The position numbers and the translations under genes are program-made. From an uncultured Chloroflexia bacterium (GTDB lineage Bacteria > Chloroflexota > Limnocylindria > Limnocylindrales > CSP1-4), in NCBI GenBank assembly GCA_963714675.1, contig CAVQPG010000016.1, positions 10,988 through 74,987 on the forward strand: DNA of 64,000 nucleotides. Direction: 5' to 3'. The notes under the pieces were generated by a model. It was not told the DNA's origin. It ran no database searches and saw nothing but the letters and a program-made list of their open reading frames with translations. Every line of letters starts with the position of its first letter. The stretch's first letter is position 1. Below, in pieces: positions 36,106 through 64,000 of this stretch.

Positions 36106-36129
36106 CGCTGTCCTCCCTGCGCGCCCCGG

Positions 36130-37168
36130 CTACGACAGCTTGCCGGCGCGGAACGCCTCGATGAAGCCCATGCCGTAGGCGTCTTCGCCGGTCAGCATGG
36201 CCCTGGCCAGGACGTAGGCCTCCGATTCGCGGTCGGGGTTCAGCGCCGCGGCCACGTCCGCGACCGGGTCGATGATGCCACTGTCCTGGCCGGCTTCGAC
36301 GCAGAGGTCGAGGAAGACGTCGCTGATGATGCGCCGGGCCGGCAGGCCGAAGCTGATGTTGCTCACGCCGCCGGTGATGTGGACCTCGTCGCCGAAGCGC
36401 TCGCGGATGGTGCTGACGGCATCGAGATAGGCCTGGCCGGCCATGGGGTCGACGCCGATGGGGATGACCAGCGGGTCCACGTGCAGCGAGGTCTCCGGCA
36501 GGCCCAGCTCGAGGGCCATGCCGATGATCTGCTCGGCCCGCTCGACGCGATCCTGCGTGCCCGAGGGCATCGACGCGCCGGTGCACGAGAGCACGACCGG
36601 CGTGCCGCGCTCCTTGACCAGCTCCAGCACCTCCGGTCGCTCGGTGGAGGCGGAGTTGACCATCGGCGTGGCGCCAGCGGCCCAGCCGGGATCGACCGCG
36701 TCGAGGCCGGCTTCGAGCACCGCGGCGTCGGAAGAGTCGATCGACAGGGGCACGCTCGAGGCGGGACCGACCGCGGCCACCAGCCACTGCATGGCCTCGA
36801 GCCGGCCGTCGACCTCGGAGCTGATCTCGTCCACGTTGAGGTCGAGGTAGTCGGCGCCACCGGCGATCTGCCGCTCGGCCATCCAGGCCACGTAGCGGGC
36901 GGCGGCATCCGCCTGCCTCGCCGCCGGCGAGGCCCTGGCGCACCGCGGCCATGACGTGCTTGATGCGCTCGCTCGTCGTGAACTCCTTCGACTCGAGGAT
37001 GGAGTCGGGGAGGGGGACCCACGACTCACCGTCCCCGTCCGGGAAGCGGATACCGGGCCGGCCGTCGGGGGCCACGCCGCCACGGACACCCTCGCGCTTG
37101 ACGATGCGGCTGCAGTGGATGTTCTCGCCGATGATGATGAACTCGGTGCCGCCGACGGCCTGCTTCAC
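36130..37168 (-). pseudogene. pterin-binding methyltetrahydrofolate:corrinoid methyltransferase (CmuB/AcsE/MetH-pterin-domain-like), frame broken once
   Basis: GTG 37168 follows AAGGAGA and overlaps the metF-like stop (GTGA). The N-terminus FIIIGENIHCSRIVK is in the frame of ORF 36065..37423. The barrel (GADYLDLNVDE, PLSIDSS, ITGGVSNISFGLP) is in ORF 36130..37089. The switch is at about 36925. Confidence 0.75.
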
Positions 37169-38652
37169 GCTTGCTCTCCTTGCTTGTCTCGGGCGTAGTG
37201 GTCGCGCCCCAGGAACGTGTTGGCCCAGGCGCTGGTGCCGCGCAGGGCGTTGTCGCCGATGACGGGTGCGCGATCGAGCATGGTCATGGCCTCGCCGTAG
37301 GGGCGCAGCCGGTCGTAGGCGACCGACCAGACACAGGGCTTGCCGGGCACCTCGCATTCGCCGTCGATGGAGCCGCCACAGGGGCCGTTGCGCTGGTTCT
37401 TGGCGCAGGCACCCTCGGGGCACTGGTAGGCGATGTCGGGCAGCGAGCAGTCACCGCAGTCCTGGCAGTCGAACATGGGGATCTTGACCGCCTGCTCGAG
37501 GACGTGAGCGGGCCACATCAGGTGGGCCGACTCCAGGGCACCGTAGAAGCGCCGCCCGAGCGCGAAGCCCCTCGACTCGGGCTCGAAGGCGACGTCATGG
37601 ACGAGGCGGTTGAAGCGGTACCCCAGCGGCACGCGCTTGGTCCGGGTCGGTGGCGTGGGCACGGCCGAGGCCAGCTGCGGCAGGTCGCCCTGCTGGTACA
37701 GGCGGTGGGGGTCGGCCTCGGGGTAGTGGATGTCGGGCAGCAAGGCCGCCAGTCGGACTGGAACTCGTCAGCCATGCCCAGGACCTTGTCGATCTCGGCA
37801 GTGTTGCGCTGGCCCGCGATGTAGGCGCCGGCGAAGCCCATGCCCCGCACCACGGCCACTTGCTTGGCCGCGAACTCGAGGAAGGCGGCTCGGCCCTTGT
37901 CGTCGGCCGCGGCCTGCTTCTGGGCCCAGGCCAGCTGTGCCTCGTTGAGGCGGATGCCCGGGACACCGTCGCGATCGAAGACCGAGGCCACGCCCTTGGA
38001 GAGGATGTACACCGAAGCCATCAGCGGGATGGGCTGCAGCTGCTCGGCGTTCCACTGCAGCAGCTCCGACCACGAGCGGGTGTCGTAGCCGACCTGCGTG
38101 ATGGCCACGTCAGCACCGGCGCGGATCTTGAGTGCCAGCTTGAGGTACTGCGGGACCAGGTCCGACTCGAGGGCCTTGAAGGGATTGATCGCGCAGCCGA
38201 TGGTGAAGCTCGGTCCGTACCGGCCGGCGTCGCGCAGCATCGAGATGAGCCCCACCGAGTCGATGTCGAAGACCGCGCGCGAGCGGCCGCCGAAGCCCTC
38301 CTTGGGATAGTCACCCGAGAGCGCCAGCGTGTTGGTCAGGCCTTCGCTCGCGAGGCCGTAGACGGTGGACTGGAGGGCCGCTCGGCTGCGATCGCGGCAG
38401 GCCAGGTGGACGACGCACTCGCCGCCCATGCCCTGGATGGCCTGGCCGAGGGTGAGCGGGCCGAGGCGCACGAAGCCGCCGGCGTTGTCGGTGACGGTGA
38501 GGGCGGTGACGCGCTCGTCGACGGTCAGCTCGCGAGCGGTCTCGCGGTGGCGCTCGCCGGCGTCGTCCTGCAGCGGGCCGGCCCAGGGCACCAGCTCCAC
38601 GAGCGTGGTGCTGCCGTCGTTGCGTGCGAGAGATTCCGCGAATGCGCTCATC
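37165..38652 (-). pseudogene. metF: methylenetetrahydrofolate reductase fused to a Cys-rich MetV-like C-terminal domain, frame broken once at the domain junction
   Basis: ATG 38652 follows GGAGGA. The MTHFR blocks (VHLACRDRS, LALSGDYP) are in ORF 37518..38744. The C-terminal domain (CQDCGDCSLPDIAYQCPEGACAKNQRNGPCGG) is in ORF 37165..37743. The switch is at about 37745 (..ADEFQSDWR / LLPDIHYPE..). Confidence 0.7.
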
Positions 38653-38715
38653 GACCCTTCAGTCCTCCACGAGCCTGTCGGCCCGACTCGCACGGTAGTG
38701 TCCACGCGACCCTCA

Positions 38716-38729
38716 GTCAACCGGTTGAC
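38716..38729. promoter_or_regulatory. LacI-type operator, perfect palindrome GTCAACCGGTTGAC
   Basis: It lies 64 nt upstream of the metF-like start codon, in the gap after the URO-D gene 38822..40081. Identical 14-mers occur at 55584 and 56748, and a one-mismatch copy at 59103. Confidence 0.6.
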
Positions 38730-38821
38730 CAGCAAAGGTGCCACTTGGCAGGGTGGAGATCCGACCAGCGGACTGATCGGGGCGGGAAGGGCCAGCAGCG
38801 ACGAGCCAGCGCGGCCGTTCC

Positions 38822-50407: not shown

Positions 50408-51329
50408 ATGCTCGACACTGACCACCAGCGCCGCAGCTGGTATCGCCAGATGCTGCTCATCCGCATCTTCGAGGACACGGTCCAGCGCGATGTTCATGGC
50501 CGGCCGGATCGAGGGCACCACGCATCTCTGTCAGGGCCAGGAGGCAGTCTCCGTCGGCGCCATCGCCGCCATGCAGCCCGGTGACGTGCAGACCAACACC
50601 TACCGCGGTCATGGCGAAGCGCTCGCGCATGGGACACCGCCTCGAGGTCGCGATGGCGGAGCTGCATCGGTCGTGCCACGGGGGGTTCCAAGGGCCTCGG
50701 CGGCTCGATGCACCTGATCGACACCGGGCACGCGGCAACATCGGAGCCAACGCCATCGTCGGGCAGCCGGCATGCCGATCGCCGTCGGGGCGGCCATGGC
50801 CTTCAAGCTGCGCGGGATCCGCAACGTGGCGCTGACGTTCATGGGCGACGGCTGCCACCAACATCGGCACGTTCCACGAGTCGCTGAACATGGCTGCGGT
50901 GTGGGCGGCGCCGGTCGTCGTGATCATCACCAACAACCTCTACGGCGAGTACTCGCCCGGTGCGCATGACCACGCCGATCGATGACCTGGCGCGCCGCGC
51001 CGATCCCTACGAGATGCCAGGCGTCATCGTCGACGGCCAGGATGTGGAGGCGGTGCACGCGGCGACTTCGCGAGGCGGTGGCCAGGGCACGTGCCGGTGG
51101 CGGCCCCAGCCTGCTGGAGATGAAGACGTACCGCTACCGCGGCCACTCGCGTTCCGATCCGGCCAAGTATCGCGTTCGAGGGGGAGCTCGAGGCCTGGAA
51201 GGAGCGAGATCCGCTGCTCGTCCTTGGAGGGCGCCTCGTCAGACGAGGGCCTCATGTCCGCGGACCAGCAGGCCGCCATGCACGCGGAGGTCGAGGCGTC
51301 AGGTCGAGGCCGCGATCGAGCGCGGCTGA
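50408..51329 (+). pseudogene. thiamine-diphosphate-dependent 2-oxoacid (pyruvate/acetoin/branched-chain) dehydrogenase E1 alpha subunit, about ten frame breaks
   Basis: ATG 50408 follows AGGAGGAG. The blocks [86 protein letters not shown] each sit in a different short ORF (50490, 50581, 50772, 50960, 50982 and others). Confidence 0.75.
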
Positions 51330-51369
51330 AGCCGCACCCTATCTGACGACTCGAGGAGGCTGCGCAGCA

Positions 51370-52431
51370 ATGTCTACGCCAGACTGACCATACCGGCCGC
51401 CGCGCTTGCGGACGAGGCCATGGAGATGACCTATCGCGAGGCGGTGAACGCCGCGCTCGATGAGTCGATCGGCTGAGCGATCCGTCGGTCGTGTTCATGG
51501 GTGAGGACGTGGGCAACGAGGGCGGCGTGTACAAGACCAACGTCGGGTCTGCGCGGAGAAGTACGGCGAGCGCGTCATCAACACGCCCATCTGCGAGAAC
51601 GGTTTCACGGGCGTGGCGCTGGGCATGGCCGTCATGGGCATGCGTCCCATCGTCGAGTTCATGTTCGCGGACTTCATGCCCACCGCGGCTGACGCCATCA
51701 TCAACCAGCTGCCCAAGTACCGCTTCATGAGCGGAGGCCAACTGTCGGTGCCGGTCACACTGCGCGTGGTCTCTGGGGCAGGAGCCGTTTCGGCTCACAG
51801 CACAGCGCCTCTGGCGAGTCCTGGTTCATGGGGCAGCCCGGGCTTGCGCGTGGCCGCCGCCGGGACTCCGGCGGCGGCCTATGAGCTGCATCAGGGCCGC
51901 CGTCCGCTGCGATGACCCGGTCATCGTGCACGAGCACAGGCTGATGTACCTGCGCAAGGGTCCGGTCCGGCGCGGTGTGGTCGCTGAGATGGGCAAGGCA
52001 TCGCGTCGAGCGGGCCGGCTCCGACGTGACCATCGTGGCCACGATGCTGATGGTCGAGCGCGCGCTGCAGGCAGCTGACCATGCTCGAGGCCGAGGGCAT
52101 CGATGCCGAGGTCATCGACCTGCGTTGGATCCGCCCACTCGACCTCGAGACGGTCACGTCCGCGGTCGAGCACACCGGCCGGCTGGTGGTGGCTGAGGAG
52201 CAGTGGCATGAGGCCGGCTGGGGCGCCACGCTCATCAGCCGATTGACCATGAACGGAGTCCACATGGCCTGCTCGACCACGCAGCGTGGCCATGCTCGAT
52301 GACATCCCCGTGCCCTTCGCGGCGCCCGCTGGAAGACGCGGTCATGCCTTCGGTGGAGCGCATCGCGGACGAGGTTCGTGCGAGCCTGACTCTGACGATG
52401 AGCGCTGGAGCGGCGCCTTGACGCTCCGCTC
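51370..52431 (+). pseudogene. 2-oxoacid dehydrogenase E1 beta subunit, many frame breaks; ends approximate
   Basis: ATG 51370 follows GAGGAGG. The blocks MTYREAVNAALDE, VFMGEDVG..GGVYK, NTPICENGFTGVALGMAVMGMRPIVEFMFADF, LEAEGIDAEVIDLRWIRPLD, GRLVVAEE are scattered over three frames. Confidence 0.7.
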
Positions 52432-52494: not shown

Positions 52495-53682
52495 CTACTC
52501 CTCCGGCAGGTCGAGCGGGTACTGCCCGTACTCTCGGACGAGCCCGACGATGGTGTCGTACGTCTTGCCCGAGACGTCGCTGGAGACCGAGTGGTCGGAC
52601 ATGAACACGTAGCCGCCACCGTAGGCGGCACGGAGCCGGTGCAGGACCTCGCGTCGCAGCTCCTCGGGGTCGCCTCGCTCCCACACGCGCATGTCGCTGT
52701 TGCCGCAGAACGTGAGCCGGTGGCCCAGGCGCTCGCGAAGCTCGACCACGTCCAGGTCCGCCTTGGCCTCCAGCGGGTTGTAGCCGTCGAGCCCGATCTC
52801 GATCATGTCCTCGAGGTAGCTGTTGGCGTTGCCGCAGCCGTGGAAGATGACCGGCAGGTCGTGCTCGTGGCAGAGCTCGATGATGCGCGCGATGGTGGGC
52901 TTGTAGTACCTGCGCCAGTAGGTCGGGCCCATGAACAGGCCCTTGCGGTAGGCAGCGTCACCCCAGATGACCATGCCGTCGAGATAGCCATCGGCGGCCT
53001 CGATCTGGGCCTTGGTCACCGCGTAGCTGAACTCGCCGATGCGCAGCAGCTGCTCGCCGAAGCGCTCGGGGTGCTCGCCGATCCAGGTCAGGGTGTTGAG
53101 CTGGCCCAGCAGGCGAGTGGTGATCTCGGAGGCCTCGGTGATGCTGCCGTAGACCGGGAAGTCCGGATGCAGTGACCTGACCGTCTCCACCCACGGCGGG
53201 CTGTTGCGTTCGAAGCCATCGCCCACGCCGGCGATCTGGTTGTCACCGGCCTCGAAGTAGCGCCGACGGTCGGTGGGGTCGTCGAACTCGAAGGCCTCCA
53301 TCTTCTCGATGGTGTCGGTCTCCCAGCTGACCTGCTCGGGCATGGGCAGGTCGAAACGCTTGCGGATGGTCGTCTCGAAGCCCGTCTTGACCACTACCTC
53401 TTCGTCGTCCTCGCGGATGGTCTCGAACGGTCGGATATGCGGATCCATGTTCGGGACCGTGACGATGAAGTCGAGGTCGTAGTGGTAGTAGGGATCGGCG
53501 TCCGCGGGCAGGCCCAGCTCCTCCTGCCAGCGCTTGCGGAAGCTGCCCCAGAAGAAGTCACTGATGGGCACACGGTCCGGCTCTTCGTGCGCGAAGGTCT
53601 TGCGCATCCGCTCGAGCTTCTCGAGCGTCGACGGCTTGCGCTCGGCCGATGCGCCCGAGCCGTAGGTGCTGAACATGCTCAT
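52495..53682 (-). CDS. URO-D-family (MtaA/CmuA-type) methyltransferase
   Basis: Intact 395-aa ORF with an H-G-C-G motif (VIFHGCGN) and the family tail GGGYVFMSDHS. It lies immediately downstream of a corrinoid gene. Confidence 0.8.
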   Translation of the reverse strand: MSMFSTYGSGASAERKPSTLEKLERMRKTFAHEEPDRVPISDFFWGSFRKRWQEELGLPADADPYYHYDLDFIVTVPNMDPHIRPFETIREDDEEVVVKTGFETTIRKRFDLPMPEQVSWETDTIEKMEAFEFDDPTDRRRYFEAGDNQIAGVGDGFERNSPPWVETVRSLHPDFPVYGSITEASEITTRLLGQLNTLTWIGEHPERFGEQLLRIGEFSYAVTKAQIEAADGYLDGMVIWGDAAYRKGLFMGPTYWRRYYKPTIARIIELCHEHDLPVIFHGCGNANSYLEDMIEIGLDGYNPLEAKADLDVVELRERLGHRLTFCGNSDMRVWERGDPEELRREVLHRLRAAYGGGYVFMSDHSVSSDVSGKTYDTIVGLVREYGQYPLDLPEE

Positions 53683-53705
53683 GGTGTGTATGTACCCCCG
53701 TTCGC

Positions 53706-54356
53706 TCAGGCTGAGCCGATGACCGACTTGGCGATCTCAGCCGCGGCGCCGGCGTCGGCGGCGAAGCCGTCCGCCTGCACCTCGTCGGCGAACTCCTGTG
53801 AGACCGGCGCCCCGCCGATGATGATCTTGGTATCCACGCCGCTGGCCCTGACCGCTGCCACCGCGTCTCGCATGTGCGGCATGGTGGTCGTCAGCAGCGC
53901 TGACATGCCCACGATGTCCGGCTGGTACTCCTGGGCCGCCGCAGCGAAGGCGGAAGGGGAGACGTTGACGCCCAGGTCGATGACCTCGATGTTGGCGCCA
54001 CGCCACATCATGCCCACGAGGTTCTTGCCGATGTCATGGAGGTCGCCCTCGACGGTGCCGATGACGGCCGAATGCGGCGCCCGCTGTCCGCTCTCGGCGA
54101 TGAGCGGCTCGAGGATGGCCAGCGAAGCCTTCATGGCGTTGGCGGCGATGAGCATCTCGGGTACGAAGATCTCGTCCTGCTGGAAGCGCTCACCGATGAC
54201 GGCCATGCCCGGGACCAGCCGGGTCTCGATGATCGCGCCCGGCTCCTCACCTTCTTCCAGGCATCGCTGTGTCAGCTCGACGGCTCCAGCCTTGTCGCCG
54301 TCGATGATGGCCTGGGTCAGTGGGTGCATCTCGGCCAAGGTCGTCCTCCCCTCCAT
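53706..54356 (-). CDS. corrinoid methyl-carrier protein
   Basis: It has DxHxxG (GDLHDIGK) and IIIGGAPV. The longer ORF to 54602 overlaps the upstream gene. Alignment with the other corrinoid proteins puts the start at 54329-54356 (an ATG at either end, or the TTG at 54338 after GGAGGGGAGGA). Confidence 0.8.
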   Translation of the reverse strand: MEGRTTLAEMHPLTQAIIDGDKAGAVELTQRCLEEGEEPGAIIETRLVPGMAVIGERFQQDEIFVPEMLIAANAMKASLAILEPLIAESGQRAPHSAVIGTVEGDLHDIGKNLVGMMWRGANIEVIDLGVNVSPSAFAAAAQEYQPDIVGMSALLTTTMPHMRDAVAAVRASGVDTKIIIGGAPVSQEFADEVQADGFAADAGAAAEIAKSVIGSA

Positions 54357-54429
54357 GGCAGGCCCAGCCTGTGGGCCCGCGTGCTTGCGGTATCCATGCG
54401 TCATCCTTCCGACGCGGCGCTCGAGATCG

Positions 54430-55569
54430 TCAGTTGCTCCCGGGCGCCTCCGATCCGACGTCGACGACCTGTTCGGTCTCCCCGGAGCGGTACAGCGCGT
54501 CGACCAGGCGCAGTGTCTTGAGGTTGTCGCGCGCGCCGGACTCCGGCTCGCCGCCATCGTGCATGGCGCGCAACAGCGAACCGACCGGGCCCAGGAAGGC
54601 ATCGGGCACCCAGCGACGGGTCACCGGATAGGGCAGCCAGCCATCGGTGGGCATCACCCGGCTCCAGAGCTCGAGCGTATCGGGTCGTCCGTGCGGGTAG
54701 TCGGAGAGCAGACCCAGGGTGCCCCGGATGGCGCCTTCAGAACCGTCGATGCGGAAGCGGGCTTCGTTGTCGCCCGCGAGGTTCTCCTGGTTGGAGTGGA
54801 CCAGGCCGCGCACGTCCCCGGGGTAGATGAGCACGCTCACTGTCCGCGTGTCGCCGATCGGCTTCTGGCCCGGCAGGCGCCACTGCGTCCCGAACACCTT
54901 GGTGGGCTCGCCCAGGAACGCTCGCAGCGTGTCGATGTAATGGATGGAATGGAAGTAGATCTCGAGCTTGGGCGCCTGCCCCAACCAGCCCCAGCCGGCG
55001 AGGTCGGTGTCGATGTTGACCTCGAAGGAGATGGTCGTGACCTCGCCGATCCAGCCGCGTTCGATCATGGCGCGGGCGGCACGCATGCCTTCCTCGTAGC
55101 GCATCTGCTGCTGGACGGCCACCTTGCGGCCGAGTTCGTCGGCCCGCGCCACGATCCTGGCCGCGTCTTCCACGTCGAGCGCCAGCGGCTTCTGGCACAT
55201 CACGTCTTTGCCGGCCTCCAGCGCTCGCAGGGCGATCTCGACCTGGGCCTCGGGTACGACCGCGATGTCCACCACCGCCACGTCGGGGTCGCCCAGCAGC
55301 TCGTCGAGCGTGTCGTAGACGCGGAGGATACCGTGCGCCTGGGCCAGCCGCTCGGCATGGCTGCGGTCACGGCCCCAGACGCCGGGTACCGGGATGCCCG
55401 CCGATCGATACACGGGCAGGTGGCCCACGTCCAGGATGGCGCCGGTGCCCACTAGCGCGACCGGGCGGATGTAGCGTTCCGGCAGCGAGAGGTCGCAGGC
55501 ATCGGCGATCTCCGCCAGCCAGCCCATCATGTCAGCGGTTCCCACGCTCGCATCTGCCATGTATAGCAA
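54430..55569 (-). CDS. Gfo/Idh/MocA-family NAD(P)-dependent oxidoreductase
   Basis: It has a Rossmann N-terminus (IRPVALVGTGAI) and the family EKP-like block (VMCQKPLAL). The start is uncertain (TTG 55569, or ATG 55560 or 55530). Confidence 0.8.
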   Translation of the reverse strand: MLYMADASVGTADMMGWLAEIADACDLSLPERYIRPVALVGTGAILDVGHLPVYRSAGIPVPGVWGRDRSHAERLAQAHGILRVYDTLDELLGDPDVAVVDIAVVPEAQVEIALRALEAGKDVMCQKPLALDVEDAARIVARADELGRKVAVQQQMRYEEGMRAARAMIERGWIGEVTTISFEVNIDTDLAGWGWLGQAPKLEIYFHSIHYIDTLRAFLGEPTKVFGTQWRLPGQKPIGDTRTVSVLIYPGDVRGLVHSNQENLAGDNEARFRIDGSEGAIRGTLGLLSDYPHGRPDTLELWSRVMPTDGWLPYPVTRRWVPDAFLGPVGSLLRAMHDGGEPESGARDNLKTLRLVDALYRSGETEQVVDVGSEAPGSN

Positions 55570-55583
55570 CCGGGGCTGGGCAA

Positions 55584-55597
55584 GTCAACCGGTTGAC
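55584..55597. promoter_or_regulatory. LacI-type operator, perfect palindrome GTCAACCGGTTGAC
   Basis: It lies in the 37-nt gap between the LacI stop (55607) and the oxidoreductase/corrinoid/URO-D operon start. Confidence 0.6.
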
Positions 55598-55606
55598 CTA
55601 CGCTGC

Positions 55607-56667
55607 TCAGCGGTCGCGATGCATCTTGATGTAGGCCGTCGTGCCCGGACCGCGCGCCCCCGGGGGAGGCATCGCCACGGTGGCTCCGGGGGAGATCCGG
55701 ATGGCCTCCTGGAGCGTCTCGTGGATGGGTACATCCCAGGCGTTGTCGAGCAGCAGTTCCACGGCCCTGCGGCCGAGCTCGCGCAGCGGCATCTCCACGC
55801 AGGTCATGGCCGGAAGGCGGTAGTCCTCGGCCGGCAGCTTGTGGAGCGCGATGAGCGAGACGTCACCCGGCACCGACAGCCCGTGTCGGTGCAGAGCGTG
55901 CCACACGCCAAGACCCTCGTTGGCGTCCGCGGCGACGATGGCCGTCGGTGGCTCGGGGCTCTTGAGGAACTCGCGCACCGCGGCCGCCCCGCCCTCGGGC
56001 GTGTAGTCGGTGCTCACGAGCCAGCTCGGATCGAGCCACAGGTCGGCTGCTGCCATGGCATCGCGGAAGCCGTCCTGGCGTCGCTCGGCCGTGTCGACCC
56101 CCGCGGGTCCCCCGGCCCAGCCGATGCGGGTGTGGCCGTGGCTGATGAGGTACTCGGTGGCCATGAGCGCCGCGTGTTCGTCGTCGAGGATGACCCAGCG
56201 CTCGGCGCTGCCCGAGCGGCGGTTGACCAGCAGGGTCGGCACGCGCGGGTCCCCGAACAGCTCGTCGGCGTCATAGCCGGCGCGCAGGCCGGCCACGAGG
56301 GCACCGTCCACAGCTCCACTTCGCAGGAGGCGCAGATAGCGCTCGGTGAGCTCGCCCTCGTGCGAGGCCGTCCAGAGCAGCAGACCACGCGCTTCGGCCA
56401 CCTCCTCCGCGCCCGCGATGATGGGCACGATCAGCGGGTTGCCCGAAGGGACCAGCAGGCCGATGGCCCCGGCACGCGCCCGGGCCAGGCCCCGGGCATG
56501 GAAGTTGGGCCGGTAGTCGAGGGCGGCGGCCGCCTCCTTGACGCGCTGGCGGGTCTCCGCACGGACGCGCAGTGTCGGATCCCCGCTGAGCACCTTCGAG
56601 ACGACCGCACGGTCGACCCCGGCGCGGCTGGCCACGTCGGCGATGGTGGTTCGACCCGGTTCCTTCA
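55607..56667 (-). CDS. LacI-family transcriptional regulator
   Basis: ATG 56667 (MKEPGRTTIADVASRAGVDRAVVSKVLSG, the LacI HTH) followed by a periplasmic-binding-protein-like sugar-sensor domain. Confidence 0.85.
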
Positions 56668-56747
56668 TGCGCGCATCCCGTCGATGGTGCCTGAGCGGCG
56701 CTCGATCACACCTGGTCGCCGCAGCATGCGCGTATCGTCCCTCCTTG

Positions 56748-56761
56748 GTCAACCGGTTGAC
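56748..56761. promoter_or_regulatory. LacI-type operator, perfect palindrome GTCAACCGGTTGAC
   Basis: It lies in the divergent intergenic region between lacI (start 56667) and the gene starting at 56842. Confidence 0.6.
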
Positions 56762-56841
56762 GCGAGTCGACCGCGGGGGCTACCGTCTGTCGCCGGTGAT
56801 GGCGAGGACATGGTCCGCCCTCGCCGGGGGAGGAGCAGGAG

Positions 56842-57699
56842 ATGCGGTTCGGCGTCCTCGGCGTGATCTGGAGCGATTGGGCAGACGTGAGCTACGAGCT
56901 GGTCGCCTTCGCGCGCGAGCTCGGGTTCACGGGCATGGGTGCCCACCTGACCGTGCCGGCGTCGACCATCACCGACGAGATCGCCCGGAACGTCCGGGCC
57001 AGCATCGACGCCAACGGCCTCGACTTCTTCCAGCTCTGGGGGCCGTACCCCACCATCATCAGCGAGGACGAGGAGGTCAGGCGCGCCGGCGTCGAAGGTG
57101 CCTGCGATGTCGTGCGCCTGGCAGCGCGCCTGGGCGTGCCGAGCTCCGGCGTACGCCCCACCAGCCACAACCCCCGTGGCGACTGGTGGCCGCACCCGGA
57201 GAACCACAGCCCGGCGAGCGAGGACCGCCTCGTGCGCAGCATCTCCGAGATCCTCGAGGTGGCCGTGCCAGCGGGGGTGAAGGTCGTGCTCGAGGCCCAC
57301 GCGACCTCGACGCTCGATTCGGCCGAGCGCGTCCGACGTGTCATCGAGCGTACGGACCCTGCCGGGGTCACGGTCAACATCGACCCGGTCAATTTCGTGC
57401 GCGACCTGCCCACCGCCTTCGACTCCACGGCCATGATCGACGAGTACTTCGACATCTGCGGCCCGTACTGCGACACCGTCCAGATCAAGGACTGCTACCT
57501 CGAAGACCGCTTCGTCGTCCATATCGCCGAGACCATCCCGGGCACGGGCATGCTCGACATCGACACCGTGCTGCGACGGACCGAGGCCCTGGGTCCTGAC
57601 ATGTACGCCGTGGTCGAGCACCTGCCGGTGAACCAGATCGGACTGGCCAAGCAGCACCTCAGCGCACGAGCGGCGGCCCTCGGCATCGAGGTCCACTGA
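56842..57699 (+). CDS. sugar-phosphate isomerase/epimerase (xylose-isomerase-like TIM barrel; IolE/MocC-type fold)
   Basis: Intact 285-aa ORF with the pattern typical of the AP-endonuclease-2/IolE-like TIM-barrel family (..VVLEAHA..NIDPVNF..). Confidence 0.7.
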   Translation: MRFGVLGVIWSDWADVSYELVAFARELGFTGMGAHLTVPASTITDEIARNVRASIDANGLDFFQLWGPYPTIISEDEEVRRAGVEGACDVVRLAARLGVPSSGVRPTSHNPRGDWWPHPENHSPASEDRLVRSISEILEVAVPAGVKVVLEAHATSTLDSAERVRRVIERTDPAGVTVNIDPVNFVRDLPTAFDSTAMIDEYFDICGPYCDTVQIKDCYLEDRFVVHIAETIPGTGMLDIDTVLRRTEALGPDMYAVVEHLPVNQIGLAKQHLSARAAALGIEVH

Positions 57700-59063
57700 T
57701 GAGGTCCGCCGACCCGGAGCGACTGCGTCGGCTGGCACGCGAGCACCTGTGGATGCCCTATTCACCGCCGGGGGCGCAGGGGCCGGTGCGAGACGAGATC
57801 CGCATCATGACCCACGGCCGAGGGGTACGGACCTGGGACCTCGATGGCAAGGAGTACCTCGATGGCACATCCGCCCTCGAGGCCCTCATCCTCGGGCATG
57901 CCGACGAGGAGGTGGTCGAGGCCATCGCCGAGCAGGCTCGCACGATGTCCTTCGTCGACGTCTTCCGCTTCGTGACACCACCCCAGGTGGAGCTGGCCGC
58001 GGAGCTGGTGGCGGCATCACCGGGCATGGCCATGGCGCACTTCACGCCCGGGGGTGCGGAGGCCGACGAGGTGGCCATCAAGATGGCGCGCCAGTATCAC
58101 GCGCTGCGAGGCGAGCCCTATCGCATGAAGGTCATCACCCGCCAGGGAGCCTTCCACGGCGTGACCGCCGGTGCGATGGCGCTCGACGGACAGTACTTCG
58201 CCTCCCGCAACGTGGTCTACGACGGCGGGGTCAGCTGGGGCCGGACCGTCCCGGCCGGCGCCTGTCCGCGGTGCGACTTCGGCAAGGCCAGCCGTCACCT
58301 GGCCTGCGTCCACGCCATCGAGGCGACCATCCGGGCGGAGGGACCCGAGACCGTCGCGGCGGTGGTCGTCGACCCGTGTGCCACGGCCATCGCCGTGTCC
58401 GTCCCGCCGGTCGGCTACCTGCGCGACCTGCGTGAGGTGTGCGATCGCCATGGCGTGCTGCTCGTGGTCGACGAGGTCATCACCGGCATGGGCCGGACCG
58501 GCAAGCTGTTCGCCACCGAGTGGGACGGCATCGTGCCCGACTTCATCACCATGTCGAAGGCGCTCAGCTCCGGCTACGTGCCCATCGGGGCCGCGCTCAT
58601 CTCGCCCAGGGTGCGGGATGCCTTCCTCGAGCACGAGGGCGTGTTCCTGCACGGGCACACGTACGCCGGCCATCCCGTGGCCGCCGCTGCCGCCCTGACC
58701 GTCCTGCGCCGCGTCATCCGAGACGACCTCGCCGGACGTGCGGCCACCCTGGGGGCTCGCCTGCTCGAAGGTGTGCGTTCGCTGAGCCACCACCGTTCCT
58801 TCTGGGATGCCCGCGGCAAGGGCCTGTTGACCGGCCTCGAGATCGTGCGCGACAACGGCACCGGGGAGGACTTCGACGATCCCCTCGCGGCCGGCAACGC
58901 GCTGCGCATCGCGGCCCGCGAACGTGGTCTCACGACGCTGCTGCTGCACCCCGGCAACGTGCTCTTCGTGGCCCCCGCGGTGGTTGCCAGCGAGGAGCAG
59001 ATCGACCGGATGGTGGCCATCCTCGACGACGCTCTGGGCGACATCGAGGCAAGCCTCGCGTGA
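57699..59063 (+). CDS. class III (omega-type) PLP-dependent aminotransferase
   Basis: Intact 454-aa ORF with VVDEVITGMGRTGKLFA and the PLP-lysine context ITMSKALSSGY. The start overlaps the upstream stop (ATGA-type junction). Confidence 0.85.
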   Translation: MRSADPERLRRLAREHLWMPYSPPGAQGPVRDEIRIMTHGRGVRTWDLDGKEYLDGTSALEALILGHADEEVVEAIAEQARTMSFVDVFRFVTPPQVELAAELVAASPGMAMAHFTPGGAEADEVAIKMARQYHALRGEPYRMKVITRQGAFHGVTAGAMALDGQYFASRNVVYDGGVSWGRTVPAGACPRCDFGKASRHLACVHAIEATIRAEGPETVAAVVVDPCATAIAVSVPPVGYLRDLREVCDRHGVLLVVDEVITGMGRTGKLFATEWDGIVPDFITMSKALSSGYVPIGAALISPRVRDAFLEHEGVFLHGHTYAGHPVAAAAALTVLRRVIRDDLAGRAATLGARLLEGVRSLSHHRSFWDARGKGLLTGLEIVRDNGTGEDFDDPLAAGNALRIAARERGLTTLLLHPGNVLFVAPAVVASEEQIDRMVAILDDALGDIEASLA

Positions 59064-59102
59064 TGGGCAGCTGGGGCCGTGCCATCCGTGGCGGGCACGG
59101 TG

Positions 59103-59116
59103 GTCAACCGCTTGAC
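59103..59116. promoter_or_regulatory. LacI-type operator variant GTCAACCGCTTGAC (one central mismatch)
   Basis: It lies in the gap between the aminotransferase stop (59063) and the amidohydrolase start (59197). Confidence 0.45.
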
Positions 59117-59196
59117 TCGGGGTATGTCCAACGGCTACCGTGGCTCGGGTCCGGGCCCGGGGACCGCGGCCTGAACGGCTCGAAAGGGGGTCGTGC

Positions 59197-60049
59197 GTGA
59201 TCGTCGACAGCCACCAGCACTTGTGGGATCTCGAAGAGGTCGACTACCCGTGGCTGGTGCCCGACTACGGGCCGATCTATCGCACCTTCAAGCCGGCGGA
59301 GCTTGAACCGCAGCTGGCCGCGGCAGGGGTCGACCGCACCGTGCTGGTGCAAGCGGCCAACTCCTTCGCCGACACCGATTCCATGCTGCGCCACGCCGAC
59401 GCCTACGACTGGATCGGCGCGGTCGTGGGCTGGGTGCCGCTCGAGGATGCCCACGAAGCGGCGCGCGTCCTCGATGGTCGGTACCTGCGGAACCCGTGGT
59501 TCAAGGGCGTGCGCCACCTCAATCACGAGGAGGCCGACCCCGACTGGCTGGTGCGCCCGGCTGTCCTCGACGGGCTCAAGGTGCTGCAGGAGCGCGGCGT
59601 GCCCTACGACGTCGTCGCAGTCTTCCCGCTGCACCTGGGACACGTGCCGGCACTGGCGCAGGCCTGCCCCGATCTGCCCATGGTCATCGACCACCTGGCC
59701 AAGCCGCCCATCGCCAGCGGCGACTACGACGCCTGGAAGGCCGACGTTGCGCGCGGCCGCGGAGTACCCCAACGTCCACGCCAAGCTCTCGGGTCTCAAC
59801 ACGGCCGCGGATTGGGAGACCTGGACGGGGGCCGACCTGGTGGAGTCGATCGGCTACGCGCTGGAGGTCTTCGGCGCCGAGCGCCTGATGTTCGGCGGCG
59901 ACTGGCCGGTGGCCATCCTGGCCGGCGACTACGCCAAGGTCTGGGCCGAGACCAACAGGGCGCTCGACGAACTGGGCGTGCAGGTGAGCGATCGCGCTGC
60001 CATCCTCGGTGGCACCGCGGCCCGGTTCTACTCGATCGAGGGGGAGTGA
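59197..60049 (+). pseudogene. amidohydrolase-2-family sugar lactonase-like protein, frame broken once
   Basis: GTG 59197 follows AAAGGGGG, with the VIVDSHQHLWD metal motif. ORF 59140 continues in ORF 59303..60049 (..AAEYPNVHAKLSGLNTAADW...GGDWPV..), with the switch at about 59755. Confidence 0.75.
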
Positions 60050-60372
60050 TGAAGCGGTACGGACAGCTCATCGGCCTGAAGCCCGAGCACTACGACGAGT
60101 ACGTCAAGGCCCATGCGGACGTGTGGCCGGGCGTGCTGGCCAAGATCGGCGACTGCAACATCCGCAACTACTCGATCTTCCACCGCAAGGGCCAGCTCTT
60201 CGCCTACTTCGAGTACGTCGGCGACGACTTCGAAGCCGACATGCAGAAGATGGCGGACGACCCCGAGACCCAACGCTGGTGGGACTGGATGATGCCCCTG
60301 CAGGAACCCCTCGCCGATCGTGACGAAGGGGAGTGGTGGAGCGACATGGAGGAGGTATTCCATACGGATTGA
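60049..60372 (+). CDS. rhaM: L-rhamnose mutarotase family protein
   Basis: 107 aa (MKRYGQLIGLKPEHYDEYVKAHADVWPGVLAKI..NYSIF....LFAYFEY.GDDF..DM..MA.DP.TQRWW), the typical RhaM pattern. The ATG overlaps the upstream TGA. Confidence 0.85.
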   Translation: MKRYGQLIGLKPEHYDEYVKAHADVWPGVLAKIGDCNIRNYSIFHRKGQLFAYFEYVGDDFEADMQKMADDPETQRWWDWMMPLQEPLADRDEGEWWSDMEEVFHTD

Positions 60373-60441
60373 CCCGACCAAGGGATAGGGCCGCACACGC
60401 GGCAGAGAACCGGATCCGACCGGAGGAGTAGAGGAGCAAGG

Positions 60442-61812
60442 ATGCGCGACACCATGACCATCAAGGGCGGGCGCTTGGCGATCCCGCTGGCGGCAGCTCT
60501 TGCCGCGACCGCGCTGGGCGCAGGCACCGCGCTGGCCCAAGGTGAGCCGGCCGATGCCGGCCTCGACCAGGACCTGTCCGGCGTGACCATCAAGATGGCG
60601 ACCATCGGTGGCCAGCCGTACGAGGCCATGTACGACTCCATCAGTCGTTTCGAGGAGGCCACCGGCGCGACCGTCGAGATCGTCTTCCTGGGCGACGGCT
60701 TCGAGATCGACCGCTACCTCAAGACCAACTACGCGGCAGGCACGACCGACTTCGACGTGGCCTGGAACCACACCAGCTTCATGTCCCAGTACACCAACTT
60801 CGTGGAGCCGCTGCAGGACTACTTCACCGAGGAGGAACTGGCCGCCTTCTCGCCCAGCATCATCGAAGCCGCCACCATCGACGGCAACCTGCAGCTCATT
60901 CCGCGACACGCGGACATCAGCGCGTTGCACTACCGCACGGACCTGTTCGGGGACGCCGACCTTCAGGCGGCCTTCGAGGCCGAGTATGGCTACCCGCTGG
61001 CCCCGCCCACGACCCTCGACCAGATGTACGACATGTCGGAGTTCTTCGTGGGCCAGGGTGTGGTCGCGTACGGCACCGAGTTCGCGGGCCGGGAAGAAGC
61101 GCTCGCTGGTCGCTTCTATGAGGTCCTCTTCGCCAACGGCGGGGATTACTTCGACGCTGACTTGAATCCCATCTTCGACTCCGAGGCTGGCGTCCTGGCT
61201 GCTACCTGGATGCGCGACCTGTACGCCAACGGCCTCATCCCCGCAGATACTCCCAACCTGCTGTGGCCTGAGGTCGCGGCCAACTTCTGCAATGGCGACG
61301 TCGCCTTCTACCTGGAGTGGTACGGCTGGTATTCGTACTTCCAGGATCCCGAGTCCTGTCCCGCCGTCGCCGGTAACTTCGGCCTGGCCCGCGGACCGGT
61401 GGGCGCTGCTGACGTCCACACCGGCTGGGCCGGTGCGCATGCCTTCAGCGTGGCCAAGTCCTCGCAGAACAAGGATGCCGCCGTCCAGCTTGTGAAGTTC
61501 CTCACCTCTGAGGCGGTCGAGTACGACGAGGCCAAGCTCGGCGTGCTGCCGGTTCGAGCCGACGTTTCGGCGCTTGTCCAGGCCGACGCGGCCGCGTCCG
61601 ACGTCGCGCTCGACAGCGAACGCCTTGCCCTCGCTGAACTGCAGGTCAGCGAGGACTTCCGGACGCCCCCGCTGTTCGCTGACTGGATCAGCTTCACCGA
61701 CACGTGGGCGCCCACGCTCCAGGGCATCATCCTTGGTGACCTGACCGTCGAGGACGGTCTGGCCAAGGGTGTCGCCGACACCAAGGACCTGCTCTCCAGC
61801 CTCGGCTACTGA
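60442..61812 (+). CDS. carbohydrate ABC transporter substrate-binding protein (CUT1, family 1 SBP)
   Basis: Intact 456-aa ORF with a signal peptide (..LAAALAATALGAGTALAQG). Confidence 0.8.
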   Translation: MRDTMTIKGGRLAIPLAAALAATALGAGTALAQGEPADAGLDQDLSGVTIKMATIGGQPYEAMYDSISRFEEATGATVEIVFLGDGFEIDRYLKTNYAAGTTDFDVAWNHTSFMSQYTNFVEPLQDYFTEEELAAFSPSIIEAATIDGNLQLIPRHADISALHYRTDLFGDADLQAAFEAEYGYPLAPPTTLDQMYDMSEFFVGQGVVAYGTEFAGREEALAGRFYEVLFANGGDYFDADLNPIFDSEAGVLAATWMRDLYANGLIPADTPNLLWPEVAANFCNGDVAFYLEWYGWYSYFQDPESCPAVAGNFGLARGPVGAADVHTGWAGAHAFSVAKSSQNKDAAVQLVKFLTSEAVEYDEAKLGVLPVRADVSALVQADAAASDVALDSERLALAELQVSEDFRTPPLFADWISFTDTWAPTLQGIILGDLTVEDGLAKGVADTKDLLSSLGY

Positions 61813-61824
61813 GCAACCGCTCGC

Positions 61825-61856
61825 AGAGGGGCCGCGCCAGCAGGTGCGGCCCCTCT
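61825..61856 (+). terminator. perfect 11-bp GC-rich hairpin after the SBP gene (attenuator/terminator candidate)
   Basis: agaggggccgc (61825-61835) pairs with gcggcccctct (61846-61856) around a 10-nt loop. There is no U-tract. The position after an SBP gene fits differential-expression hairpins in ABC operons. Confidence 0.4.
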
Positions 61857-61900
61857 CGACGTGACGGCCTGACCCGACAGCACCCGATGCCATCCGACTG

Positions 61901-62863
61901 ATGACGACTGACGCCGCCCGACTGCCCGGCACGCTGCCGCCACCGGACCGAGAGTCCGCGCTTGCCCGGCTGCGGCGCCGACAGTGGTTCCCATATCTCA
62001 TGACGCTGCCGGCGCTTCTCATCGTGCTGGCTGTCGTCGTCTTTCCGATGGTCTACGCGCTCTATGTTTCGTTTACGCCATTCCATCTGTTGAGGCCGGA
62101 CACGACCTCTCAGTTCGTGCTCGACGACATGTTCAATAACTACGCCCGTCTGGCCCGGGACGACGTGTTCTGGCGGGCACTGCGCAACACGGTCATCTTC
62201 ATGTTCGTTACGGTGAACGCGTCCCTGATCATCGGCTTCGGCATGGCCATGATGATGGCTCGGATGACCTTCGCGACCGGACCGGCGCGTACGCTCCTGA
62301 TGATCCCGATGATGTTCGCCCCGGTCCTCATCGGTTTCCAGTTCGCCTGGTTCTTCAACGCCACGGTCGGCCTGGTCAATAACGCGTTGACCACGCTGGG
62401 GTTGATCTCGCAGCCGATTCCGTTCCTCATCGACGAGCCCACCGGCATGGTGTCGCTGATGCTGGCTTCGATCTGGATGATGGTCCCCATCGTGACCATC
62501 GTGCTGTTGGCCGGCCGCCTCTCCTTGTCTGAGGAGCTGTACGACGCCGCCTCAGTCGACGGGGCCTCCGTGTATCAGCGGATGCGGCACATCACCATCC
62601 CGCAGATGCGGCCATTCTTCGTCATCGTGCTGTTGCTGCTCTCGCTCGATATCGCCCGCTCGTACGACATCGTGCGCATCATGACCGACGGCGGACCTGC
62701 GCACCGCACTGAACTCATCTGGACCTATGCCGGCCAGCTGGCCATTCGCAACTCCCAGTTCGGCATGGCCTCGGCGATGTCGATGACCGGCGTCGTTCTC
62801 GGCGTGGCCTTCACGTTCTATCTCTTCCGCCAGATGATGCAACTGCGCAAGGACATGGGATGA
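61901..62863 (+). CDS. carbohydrate ABC transporter permease (CUT1, MalF/UgpA-like)
   Basis: Intact 320-aa multi-span ORF with an EAA-type loop (..LYDAASVDGASVYQRMRHITIPQM..). Confidence 0.85.
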   Translation: MTTDAARLPGTLPPPDRESALARLRRRQWFPYLMTLPALLIVLAVVVFPMVYALYVSFTPFHLLRPDTTSQFVLDDMFNNYARLARDDVFWRALRNTVIFMFVTVNASLIIGFGMAMMMARMTFATGPARTLLMIPMMFAPVLIGFQFAWFFNATVGLVNNALTTLGLISQPIPFLIDEPTGMVSLMLASIWMMVPIVTIVLLAGRLSLSEELYDAASVDGASVYQRMRHITIPQMRPFFVIVLLLLSLDIARSYDIVRIMTDGGPAHRTELIWTYAGQLAIRNSQFGMASAMSMTGVVLGVAFTFYLFRQMMQLRKDMG

Positions 62864-63774
62864 CAAGCACTGCGCCGACCACCTCGAACACCACTCCTTC
62901 CGCCAGGTCCCGCCATACCACACGCCGTCGCATCCACTGGCGCGATATCGGCGCCAACTGGCTCGCCTTCACGGTCCTCACGCTCCTGGCACTGCCGGCC
63001 ATCTGGATCATCCTGACGGCCTTTCGGCCGAACCTGGAGGTCAACGCCTCACCCCCGATCTGGATCCCGCAGACCATCACACTCGATGCCTTCGGGCAGC
63101 TCTTCGGCCTTAACCCGGGTCTCGCCGCCGGAGTCCCGGTCGGGAGTTACCTGGTCAACTCGCTGTCTGTGGCGCTGCTCGCCACGGCGGTGTCGGTGCC
63201 GATCGGTACAGCGGCAGGCTACGCATTCTCGCGATTCGACTTCGTCGGCAGCCGTATGTTGCTGCTCCTGCTCCTGCTCACCCGCGCCGTCCCTGGGATC
63301 GCACTGAGCCTGCCCCTGTTCTTGCTGATGCGGACGGTCGGCCTCGTGGACACGGTCCACGGACTCGCCCTCGTCTACATCGCGCTGAACATCCCCTTCA
63401 CCGCGTGGTTGATGGATGGCTTCTTCCGGCGCATCCCGAAGGAGCTCGACGATGCTGCCTTCGTTGACGGGGCCAGCCACTGGCAGACCTTCTGGAAGAT
63501 CGATCTGCCCCTAGCGCTACCGGGACTCGGTGCCGCGGCCGTCTTCGCCTTCCTGGCCGCTTGGAACGAGTACCAGATCGCCAGCATCATGACCAAGACA
63601 CCGGCGGCCAAGACGTTCCCAGTCGGACTGTTCGACTTCACCGGCCAGTTCACGGTCGACTGGCGGGGCATGGCTGCGATGTCCGTGCTGATGATGATCC
63701 CCGCCATCATCTTCGTGATGCTGATGTCGCGAAGCCTGACCCGGGGCCTCACCTTCGGAGCCGTGAAGGGGTAG
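62860..63774 (+). CDS. carbohydrate ABC transporter permease (CUT1, MalG/UgpE-like)
   Basis: Intact 304-aa multi-span ORF with an EAA loop (..LDDAAFVDGASHWQTFWKIDLPLA..). ATGA overlap with the previous permease gene. Confidence 0.85.
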   Translation: MTSTAPTTSNTTPSARSRHTTRRRIHWRDIGANWLAFTVLTLLALPAIWIILTAFRPNLEVNASPPIWIPQTITLDAFGQLFGLNPGLAAGVPVGSYLVNSLSVALLATAVSVPIGTAAGYAFSRFDFVGSRMLLLLLLLTRAVPGIALSLPLFLLMRTVGLVDTVHGLALVYIALNIPFTAWLMDGFFRRIPKELDDAAFVDGASHWQTFWKIDLPLALPGLGAAAVFAFLAAWNEYQIASIMTKTPAAKTFPVGLFDFTGQFTVDWRGMAAMSVLMMIPAIIFVMLMSRSLTRGLTFGAVKG

Positions 63775-63778
63775 CGAG

Positions 63779-64000
63779 ATGACGCGACTGTACGAGCCGA
63801 ACTGGCGCATCGAAGCCGGCGCGGGACGCGATCTGCGCATCGGCCTCATCGGCTGTGGCGGCATCGTCTCGGGCGCCCACCTGCCGGCCTACCAGGCGGC
63901 CGGCCTGCAGGTGACGGCCGTCTTCGACGTCGACCAGGAGAAGGCCCGCAAGGTCGCCGACGACTTCGCTATCCCGGCGGTCGCATCCTCGGCCGAGGAG
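63779..64000 (+). CDS. Gfo/Idh/MocA-family oxidoreductase (5' part, runs off the window)
   Basis: Open-ended, so not in the ORF track. ATG 63779 gives MTRLYEPNWRIEAGAGRDLRIGLIGCGGIVSGAHLPAYQAAGLQVTAVFDVDQEKARKVADDF, a classic N-terminal Rossmann segment of the family. Confidence 0.7.
   Translation, partial: MTRLYEPNWRIEAGAGRDLRIGLIGCGGIVSGAHLPAYQAAGLQVTAVFDVDQEKARKVADDFAIPAVASSAEE

Follow-up and report, generated by a model that had tools for sequence, protein, structure and literature searches.

The 64,000-nucleotide stretch of DNA analyzed here (the window, C16:10988-74987) comes from a 3.16-Mb assembly of an uncultured Chloroflexia bacterium that has 25 contigs, a G+C content of 68%, and an estimated completeness of 81%. 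Within the window, an 11.5-kb locus beginning at 52495 places a uroporphyrinogen decarboxylase (URO-D) family protein, here labeled U6, and a stand-alone corrinoid protein (CP) among sugar genes. The locus is probably a LacI-controlled regulon for the corrinoid-dependent demethylation of a methylated 6-deoxy-L-hexose. We propose 2-O-methyl-L-fucose as the specific substrate only tentatively.

An earlier note, made from the sequence alone, had listed the genes of the locus; each was found where that note placed it or close by, with strong Pfam matches. On the minus strand, U6 (52495-53682; Pfam URO-D, 5.7e-21) and CP (53706-54356; B12-binding, 9.7e-26; B12-binding_2, 5.2e-23) follow GFO1 (54430-55560; 1.7e-20), a Gfo/Idh/MocA oxidoreductase and the first gene of a GFO1-CP-U6 operon. 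Upstream on the same strand is a LacI-family repressor (55607-56668, ATG start at 56668). The plus strand encodes an AP_endonuc_2 (xylose-isomerase-like) TIM barrel (56842-57699; 3.7e-23), a class III, omega-transaminase-type aminotransferase (57699-59063; 1e-84), a frame-broken lactonase homolog of the Amidohydro_2 family (59194-60049), a RhaM-family mutarotase-like protein (60049-60372; 2.8e-32), and a CUT1-type ATP-binding cassette (ABC) transporter with a solute-binding protein (SBP; SBP_bac_1, 60442-61812) and two permeases (BPD_transp_1, 61901-62863 and 62860-63774). A second Gfo/Idh/MocA oxidoreductase, GFO2 (63779-64864, plus strand), runs past the window end at 64000. Because none of the locus proteins attains the curated cutoff of any NCBIfam model, the gene names are family-level only.

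A shared operator and conserved gene order

A 14-bp perfect palindrome, GTCAACCGGTTGAC, stands on either side of the LacI gene and in front of three further operons. The whole assembly holds four exact and three one-mismatch copies, all on this contig within 45 kb, and six matches were observed in the window versus 0.25 expected. Two of the one-mismatch copies (23788-23801 and 28553-28566) were not accepted as operators because they fall within a pair of paralogous coding sequences whose flanks are nearly identical (...INIVNQLTMEAVLAAAQE...); they are coding coincidences. The five noncoding copies with at most one mismatch each stand before a gene unit. O1 (55584-55597) precedes GFO1-CP-U6, O2 (56748-56761) lies in the divergent region between the LacI and TIM barrel genes, and O3 (59103-59116), the one-mismatch form GTCAACCGCTTGAC, precedes the lactonase-RhaM-ABC-GFO2 unit. 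O4 (38716-38729), an exact copy, precedes a minus-strand operon for one-carbon (C1) metabolism, and a further exact copy at 69139, beyond the window, precedes an E1 alpha/beta gene pair.

At four of the five sites, read by eye, the right half-site forms a -35-like TTGAC(T/G) box followed after 17 to 18 nt by a -10-like hexamer, which is TACCGT at three operators and TATACA at one. O1 overlaps TTGACT, with 17 nt to TATACA; O2 reads TTGACG-18 nt-TACCGT toward the TIM barrel gene, O3 reads TTGACT-18 nt-TACCGT, and O4 reads TTGACT-17 nt-TACCGT. Promoter-like spacing does not fit the operator at 69139, and a consensus promoter and terminator scan returned no promoter and one terminator-like site. 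Since the right half-site forms the -35-like box, LacI bound at the operator would occlude the promoter. The regulator itself has the parts of a LacI repressor with a palindromic operator, namely a LacI helix-turn-helix domain, a periplasmic-binding-protein-like sensor (Peripla_BP_3; both by Pfam), and a palindrome near promoter-like boxes.

The operator positions recur in at least 10 orthologous loci, and the one-mismatch variant before the lactonase is the same in all relatives. Because operator copies precede all units and their positions are conserved in relatives, there is good support for joint control of the corrinoid pair, the sugar genes, and a folate C1 sink through this predicted operator. 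By its operator pattern, the locus is one predicted LacI-controlled regulon.

A comparison of neighborhoods in related genomes, which the earlier note had proposed as a check, ties the corrinoid pair to the sugar genes through both colinearity and operon fusions. The relatives compared were loci (L numbers) and genomes (G numbers) of the same genus. At least nine genomes of the genus share the colinear 11.5-kb locus, and GFO1 remains fused to CP-U6 in all rearranged relatives. After rearrangement, G009 and L038 carry a single lactonase-GFO1-CP-U6 operon, and L039 and L043 carry a GFO1-RhaM-SDR-CP-U6 operon that includes a short-chain dehydrogenase/reductase (SDR). The lactonase and GFO1 are co-directional in one operon in G009, G068, and G005. 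The aminotransferase gene is exactly deleted from the otherwise colinear locus of G036, and G009 (L041:15072-18662) holds the TIM barrel, omega-transaminase, and Lyase_1 genes in a separate operon of their own. Judged by gene order, the conserved core is U6, CP, GFO1, the lactonase, and RhaM, and the "amino" genes are a separable submodule.

Sister genomes also differ by insertion. In G026 (L023:5900-16200), and likewise in G066 and G028, a 10-kb insert separates the LacI and TIM barrel genes; with it come two more operator copies and genes for an M20 peptidase-like protein, a CUT2-type ABC transporter for monosaccharides, and a lactonase with a 7-bladed beta-propeller. Going by these operator copies, the predicted regulon gains modules in sister genomes.

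Components of a putative corrinoid methyl transfer system

U6 belongs to the URO-D superfamily, with 75.4 bits against Pfam PF01208 (cutoff, 23.9). It scored below the cutoffs of MtaA/CmuA-type models (TIGR01463, 35.3/235.4 bits; NF040654, 35.8/400; NF041608, 33.7/600). By these scores it is outside all curated families and forms a separate orthogroup. A sequence search of PDB gave weak matches to HemE (2.6e-5, C-terminal third) and MtaA (4AY7, 7.6e-4). No HemE model was among the NCBIfam matches at 1e-5, and the neighbors of U6 are all sugar genes, not heme-pathway genes. An AlphaFold2 model of moderate confidence (predicted local distance difference test, 71.6) returned HemE structures and MtaA 4AY7 as top Foldseek matches, with a probability of 1.00 and TM scores of 0.57 to 0.67. 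The residues H281-G-C283 align with the zinc-binding H-I-C of MtaA 4AY7, where HemE has FTKGG. Both this HGCGN motif and a downstream SDHS motif are invariant in 14 U6 orthologs from several phyla. We therefore treat U6 as a candidate MtaA-like methyl-sugar:corrinoid methyltransferase (methyltransferase I [MT I]).

The orthogroup is large and shows unusual conservation. A protein search retrieved 5303 proteins at an E value of ≤1e-10, and a genome scan confirmed 541 relatives, the best 80 of which are 63-98% identical to U6. Identity across phyla is 63-75% in at least six phyla; relatives occur in Chloroflexota, Verrucomicrobiota, Planctomycetota, Lentisphaerota/Kiritimatiellia, Bacteroidota, Hydrogenedentota, and Acidobacteriota, under generic annotations only.

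CP lies 23 bp upstream of U6 and carries the motifs GDLHDIGK, SALLTT, and GGAP. It consists of a B12-binding_2 cap and a Rossmann B12-binding domain with DxHxxG, SxL, and GG, both above their Pfam cutoffs. Its score against TIGR02370 is 161.8 bits, below the cutoff of 215.3, so it is of the MtaC/MtbC/MtgC type by architecture and not a named equivalog. In 13 of 14 Chloroflexota loci, a corrinoid protein stands 20-90 bp from the U6 ortholog.

The co-regulated C1 operon (31582-38744, minus strand; Pfam assignments) would act as a sink for the methyl group. It encodes methylenetetrahydrofolate reductase (MTHFR; 37518-38744), a pterin-binding methyltransferase (MT II; ∼36271-36882, PF00809 at C16:47258-47869), a frame-broken formate-tetrahydrofolate (THF) ligase (FTHFS; 33088-35277), a second URO-D protein (32340-33423), and a second corrinoid protein (31582-32241). 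The genome has one RACo-type activase (C19:89849-91501), with PF14574 at C19:90794. All four parts of a multicomponent corrinoid O-demethylase are thus encoded: MT I (candidate U6), CP, MT II, and a RACo activase.

Because CP rarely adjoins U6 outside Chloroflexota, corrinoid dependence there rests on genome-wide co-occurrence. All 15 U6 carrier genomes from other phyla that were tested encode, besides MetH, a stand-alone corrinoid protein of 210-235 aa that is 40-60% identical to CP. A RACo-type activase is present in 14 of 15 U6 carriers versus 1 of 14 control genomes. Across 151 evenly sampled Bacteroidales genomes, RACo was present in 10 and U6 in just 2, each of which also has RACo (hypergeometric P ∼ 0.004); this result is supportive rather than strong because one of the two U6 genomes is the seed genome. 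Corrinoid protein and RACo genes are often neighbors in U6 carriers. In a Bacteroides and a Verrucomicrobiota metagenome-assembled genome (MAG) with U6, they stand beside MTHFR, MT II, and FTHFS, as in the co-regulated operon.

The genome also contains at least 13 URO-D-like paralogs (on C1, C3, C4, C16, C17, and C25), ∼25-41% identical to one another, together with at least six stand-alone corrinoid protein genes.

Sugar enzymes of the locus

The Amidohydro_2 protein matched NF052480 (L-fucono-1,5-lactonase) at 4.4e-31 over its N-terminal two-thirds; its 108.5 bits, against a cutoff of 400, are those of the frame-broken copy. An intact ortholog (L025:8484-9392) matched PDB entry 4DLF over its full length at 9.4e-38. 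We take 4DLF and 4DNM to be the L-fucono-1,5-lactonase of Burkholderia multivorans, BmulJ_04915. The protein is accordingly named an L-fucono-1,5-lactonase homolog, its specificity being predicted.

The earlier note's single frame break, near 59755, is real in the assembly. The amidohydrolase frame changes between ∼59754 and ∼59759 by one base, inside gcgcgcggccgcgg. Because the two halves are in a single frame in eight genomes of the genus, and the nearest relative (L033, 94-98% identical) is broken elsewhere in the gene, an assembly error is more likely than decay or an inherited pseudogene. The start codon of RhaM overlaps the lactonase stop codon (TGATG). An open reading frame at 59140-60372, which would read as an amidohydrolase-RhaM fusion, was rejected as an artifact of open frame in high-GC DNA.

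RhaM scored 111.5 bits against Pfam rhaM (cutoff, 23.4) and 51.9 bits against TIGR02625 (RhaM/YiiL), short of the cutoff of 99.6; by these scores and its neighborhoods, it represents a separate RhaM-like subfamily associated with U6. GFO1, whose PDB matches are generic family members, is a candidate sugar 1-dehydrogenase. The SBP has distant PDB matches to maltose and sulfoquinovosyl-glycerol binders (MalE3 and SmoF).

Neighborhoods in other phyla and the candidate substrate

U6 neighborhoods were counted in 69 loci outside Chloroflexota, alongside the 14 loci within it. RhaM lies near U6 in 41 of the 69 loci, within 250 bp in 21 and one gene away in ∼12, and is 49-66% identical to the RhaM of this locus (37% in one locus). 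The transporter RhaT was found in 26/69 loci, GH139 (a glycoside hydrolase family) in 11/69, an AraC regulator in 10/69, and a second URO-D paralog in 9/69; fucosidases of GH29 and GH95 also adjoin U6. Wherever GH139 occurs near U6, the two genes share a strand, and in seven loci, from Bacteroidota, Planctomycetota, and Lentisphaerota, they are immediate neighbors.

The GH139 proteins were identified as 780- to 800-aa DUF5703 neighbors that match PDB entries 9HMB (4.8e-131) and 9HYQ (4.5e-97), which are structures of the GH139 2-O-methyl-alpha-L-fucosidase BT0984 (PMC12282258). This is the single characterized activity of GH139. Because GH139 adjoins U6 orthologs in other phyla, we infer 2-O-methyl-L-fucose, a sugar freed from rhamnogalacturonan II, as the candidate substrate. 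The paper on GH139 nowhere mentions demethylation or catabolism of the released 2-O-methyl-L-fucose (PMC12282258). In holding that the substrate could not be decided from sequence, the earlier note was too cautious, as GH139 adjacency in other phyla points to this sugar. Its option of an O-methylated deoxyhexose, with a corrinoid system in place of an oxygenase, fits the comparative evidence.

One Sunxiuqinia MAG (L109:13535-17192) carries, after GH139-U6-RhaM-RhaT, a second cassette that encodes another URO-D paralog, an FGGY kinase, and a second transporter of the RhaT-like type. Duplication of methyl-sugar modules seems to have occurred in Bacteroidota.

Proposed pathway

In the proposed pathway, the CUT1 ABC system would import the methylated sugar, either free or in a small glycoside because no GH139 was found in the genus, and members of the genus would thus be scavengers of free methyl sugar. 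The RhaM-like protein would equilibrate the anomers. U6, acting as MT I, would polarize the ether through a His-Cys-(Asp/His) metal site, and Co(I) of the adjacent corrinoid protein would accept the methyl group, leaving the free deoxyhexose. MT II of the C1 operon would hand the methyl group to tetrahydrofolate for oxidation to formate by MTHFR and formate-THF ligase, and the RACo-type activase, encoded on another contig, would re-reduce oxidized Co(II). A Gfo/Idh/MocA dehydrogenase would oxidize the demethylated L-fucose-type sugar to a lactone, which the fuconolactonase homolog would open. The order of demethylation and oxidation is itself part of the proposal.

Alternative explanations

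Several observations weigh against this pathway. U6 scores ∼35-45 bits against models of characterized MtaA, CmuA, and MtbA proteins, far below their cutoffs of 235-600. The fold search ranks HemE and MtaA equally, without separating the methyltransferase from the decarboxylase branch. U6 is without the third Cys ligand of MtaA, the invariant S-D363-H364-S lying near the position estimated for it. A corrinoid protein adjoins U6 in just 3/69 loci of other phyla, and an aliphatic sugar ether is a chemically more difficult target for Co(I) than an aryl ether. On the sugar side, the scheme gives no role to the TIM barrel, omega-transaminase, and Lyase_1, which are also under the operator, and the regulon includes no obvious fuconate dehydratase. 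The assignment of 2-O-methyl-L-fucose is transferred from orthologs 63-75% identical to U6. GH139 was not found in the genome itself or in 49 genomes of the genus, in a search without a positive control in the set.

The alternative that survives best, although we regard it as unlikely, keeps the mechanism (O- or N-demethylation) and changes the substrate to another methylated sugar, such as 3-O-methyl-L-rhamnose, a methylated L-galactose, or a methylated amino-deoxyhexose whose amino group would fall to the submodule of TIM barrel, transaminase, and Lyase_1. RhaM and RhaT are rhamnose-type names and no solved fucose binder resembles the CUT1 SBP, whereas the best characterized relative of the lactonase is a fuconolactonase. 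The three submodule genes share the operator and, in G009, one operon; the transaminase is nevertheless dispensable in G036. The absence of GH139 from the genus genomes searched and the number of URO-D-like paralogs in the genome, which implies that specificities diversify, would both suit another substrate, but identity at the level seen between U6 and its GH139-, GH29-, and GH95-linked orthologs usually preserves specificity.

It is improbable that U6 is not a corrinoid methyltransferase and instead has another URO-D-fold role in 6-deoxyhexose metabolism, together with RhaM, as a metal-dependent isomerase, decarboxylase, or hydrolase. The Chloroflexota CP would then serve neighboring paralogs or the C1 operon. 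Outside Chloroflexota, RhaM is indeed the most constant neighbor (41/69 loci versus 3/69 for a corrinoid protein), but those three loci add to the close CP-U6 spacing in Chloroflexota, and the tested carriers from other phyla all encode a stand-alone corrinoid protein and nearly all encode RACo, which is rare otherwise. Similarly, the very low scores against MtaA-type models and a fold search that does not set U6 apart from HemE are countered by the invariant H-x-C, which matches MtaA and is absent from HemE, and by co-regulation with MT II, MTHFR, and FTHFS.

The earlier note had also raised inositol, inosamine, or rhizopine catabolism. For an O-methylated aminocyclitol (a rhizopine- or pinitol/inosamine-like compound), Gfo/Idh/MocA would be the inositol dehydrogenase, the TIM barrel an IolE/MocC dehydratase, and the aminotransferase would act on inosamine. 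We consider this very improbable. The three families do occur together under one operator, but the two Gfo/Idh/MocA proteins reach only 74.9 and 79 bits against the IolG model TIGR04380 (cutoff, 355). The note's "IolE/MocC-like" label for the TIM barrel held at the superfamily level (AP_endonuc_2) and failed beyond it: at 1e-5 the protein matched none of the NCBIfam models, that for IolE among them, and a PDB sequence search at 0.01 found nothing. The TIM barrel belongs to a lineage-restricted family; its best 120 homologs are 72-96% identical, and their named sources are all Limnocylindrales except for one Deferrimicrobium MAG; because these homologs are close relatives and nearly all Limnocylindrales, they provide no outside context. 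The aminotransferase, whose best PDB matches are omega- and amine-transaminases, is deleted in G036 and stands outside the conserved core, which weakens the inosamine option further. The cross-phylum neighbors of U6 are all deoxyhexose or fucoside genes, with no iol gene among them.

A chance neighborhood of unrelated units, which high gene density and a region rich in sugar loci might produce, is the least credible explanation given an operator unique to this genome region, conserved synteny and operon fusions in relatives, and independent linkage in other phyla. The earlier note's tie between the corrinoid/methyltransferase pair and the flanking sugar genes is borne out by the shared operator, the fusions, and the cross-phylum linkage to RhaM, RhaT, GH29, GH95, and GH139.

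Flanking genes

Beyond the window, GFO2 is followed by a Lyase_1 gene (64861-66216) and, on the opposite strand, an SDR gene (66225-66989). A 331-aa protein with an LDPCGSCG motif (L001:5064-6059, window 67064-68059) lies between the SDR gene and a gene for a MetE-like protein (Meth_synt_2; L001:6101-7132, window 68101-69132). This gene string (Lyase_1, SDR, the 331-aa protein, and MetE-like) was taken as continuous from its conservation in relatives. The Lyase_1 protein of the G009 operon is adenylosuccinate-lyase/PcaB-like, which hints at a C-N lyase and transamination acting on some amine. The 331-aa protein is 83-98% identical in relatives and had no Pfam match. The MetE-like protein keeps an H-x-C (SLHLCFGNF) and a C-terminal DCG motif, is conserved in relatives, and stands directly before the operator at 69139; it may transfer methyl groups from methyl-corrinoid to homocysteine.

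Two 2-oxoacid dehydrogenase E1 alpha/beta pairs bracket the locus without E2 or E3, one behind the operator at 69139 (L001:7139-9195, window 69139-71195) and one on the other flank (window 50408-52431); both copies flank it in G012 as well. After the former lies the gene for a 433-aa protein without a Pfam match (L001:9248-10549, window 71248-72549). Members of its family occur near U6 orthologs in 13 loci (7 outside Chloroflexota) and directly 3′ of another URO-D paralog at C25:293710. Profile comparison distantly links this family to a URO-D-type family (hhalign probability, 91.8%; E value, 7e-7).

Comparison with known systems

The aryl methyl ether O-demethylases of acetogens and Desulfitobacterium, such as Odm and Vdm of Acetobacterium dehalogenans and MtvABC of Moorella, consist of MT I, a corrinoid protein, MT II, and an activating enzyme. 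The activation of corrinoid O-demethylases is discussed elsewhere (PMC6739815). The genes described here would supply the same set: MT I (U6), a small DxHxxG corrinoid protein, a pterin-binding methyl-Co:THF methyltransferase, and a RACo-type activase. In contrast to those systems, the proposed substrate is an aliphatic sugar methyl ether and not a phenyl methyl ether, U6 has no significant sequence match to any characterized MT I, the components are spread over a LacI-operator sugar regulon, and the host is a soil Chloroflexota bacterium and not an acetogen.

U6 shares with MtaA/MtbA (4AY7) and the MtaA-like domain of CmuA a URO-D-fold TIM barrel, with an H-x-C-G-N that aligns with the MtaA zinc ligands. 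Unlike MtaA/MtbA, it has an invariant S-D-H-S in place of the third ligand Cys, it has no coenzyme M context, and its proposed direction is from substrate to Co(I) rather than from methyl-Co to a thiol. In the chloromethane utilization system of aerobic methylotrophs, cmuAB occurs with metF, folD, and purU. There, as proposed here with MTHFR, MT II, and FTHFS, corrinoid methyl transfer is coupled to a dedicated THF route to formate outside strict anaerobes. The present system differs in having formate-THF ligase instead of PurU, a sugar ether as the putative methyl donor, and methyltransferase and corrinoid domains on separate proteins. A related anaerobic system has been described (PMC13222342).

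In marine Bacteroidota, a cytochrome P450 demethylates 6-O-methyl-D-galactose in an oxygen-dependent reaction that releases formaldehyde (PMC6292453). As in that case, the methyl ether would have to go before the sugar enters central catabolism, but the enzyme family is unrelated, and the system proposed here would be oxygen independent and conserve the methyl group on folate. In our literature search, we found no corrinoid-dependent sugar demethylase; the P450 for 6-O-methyl-galactose was the only sugar demethylase found (PMC6292453), and a paper on mlp gene clusters covers methyl-sulfur and selenide clusters without mentioning sugars (PMC10418091).

As in the nonphosphorylative L-fucose pathway, a lactonase homolog is paired with sugar dehydrogenases, and in relatives with an SDR. 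The dehydrogenase here is of the Gfo/Idh/MocA family and not an SDR, the lactonase is below the equivalog cutoff, and the regulon is without fuconate dehydratase. GH139 (BT0984) would supply the sugar for U6 orthologs elsewhere, where it adjoins them; it is not part of this locus. The logic is that of the aryl O-demethylase and chloromethane systems; what differs here is the proposed substrate class, the candidate MT I sequence family, and the wiring into a LacI sugar regulon.

Implications

In pectin (rhamnogalacturonan II) and in algal and bacterial glycans, sugars whose catabolism is blocked by methyl ethers are common. It is conceivable, if somewhat short of probable, that the missing enzyme in the catabolism of GH139-released 2-O-methyl-L-fucose is the U6 orthogroup, which would also be the first case of corrinoid-dependent cleavage of an aliphatic sugar methyl ether. 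It would operate in several hundred species of at least six phyla, including gut-type Bacteroides, always with a corrinoid/RACo/folate hub. The Chloroflexota paralogs, several of which lie in sugar-uptake loci of their own, might then form a general oxygen-independent toolkit for methyl sugars that directs the methyl group to formate and perhaps, via the MetE-like enzyme of the same predicted regulon, to methionine.

If true, this would close a gap in the fate of the GH139-released methyl sugar and add carbohydrate ethers to the aryl ethers, methanol, amines, and halides that corrinoid methyltransferases use. With a single repressor and a single operator for a defined protein set, the locus is a clean test bed. 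The same reading would tie glycan turnover in soil and gut to the supply of cobalamin and would give plant-derived methyl groups an oxygen-free entry into folate C1 metabolism.

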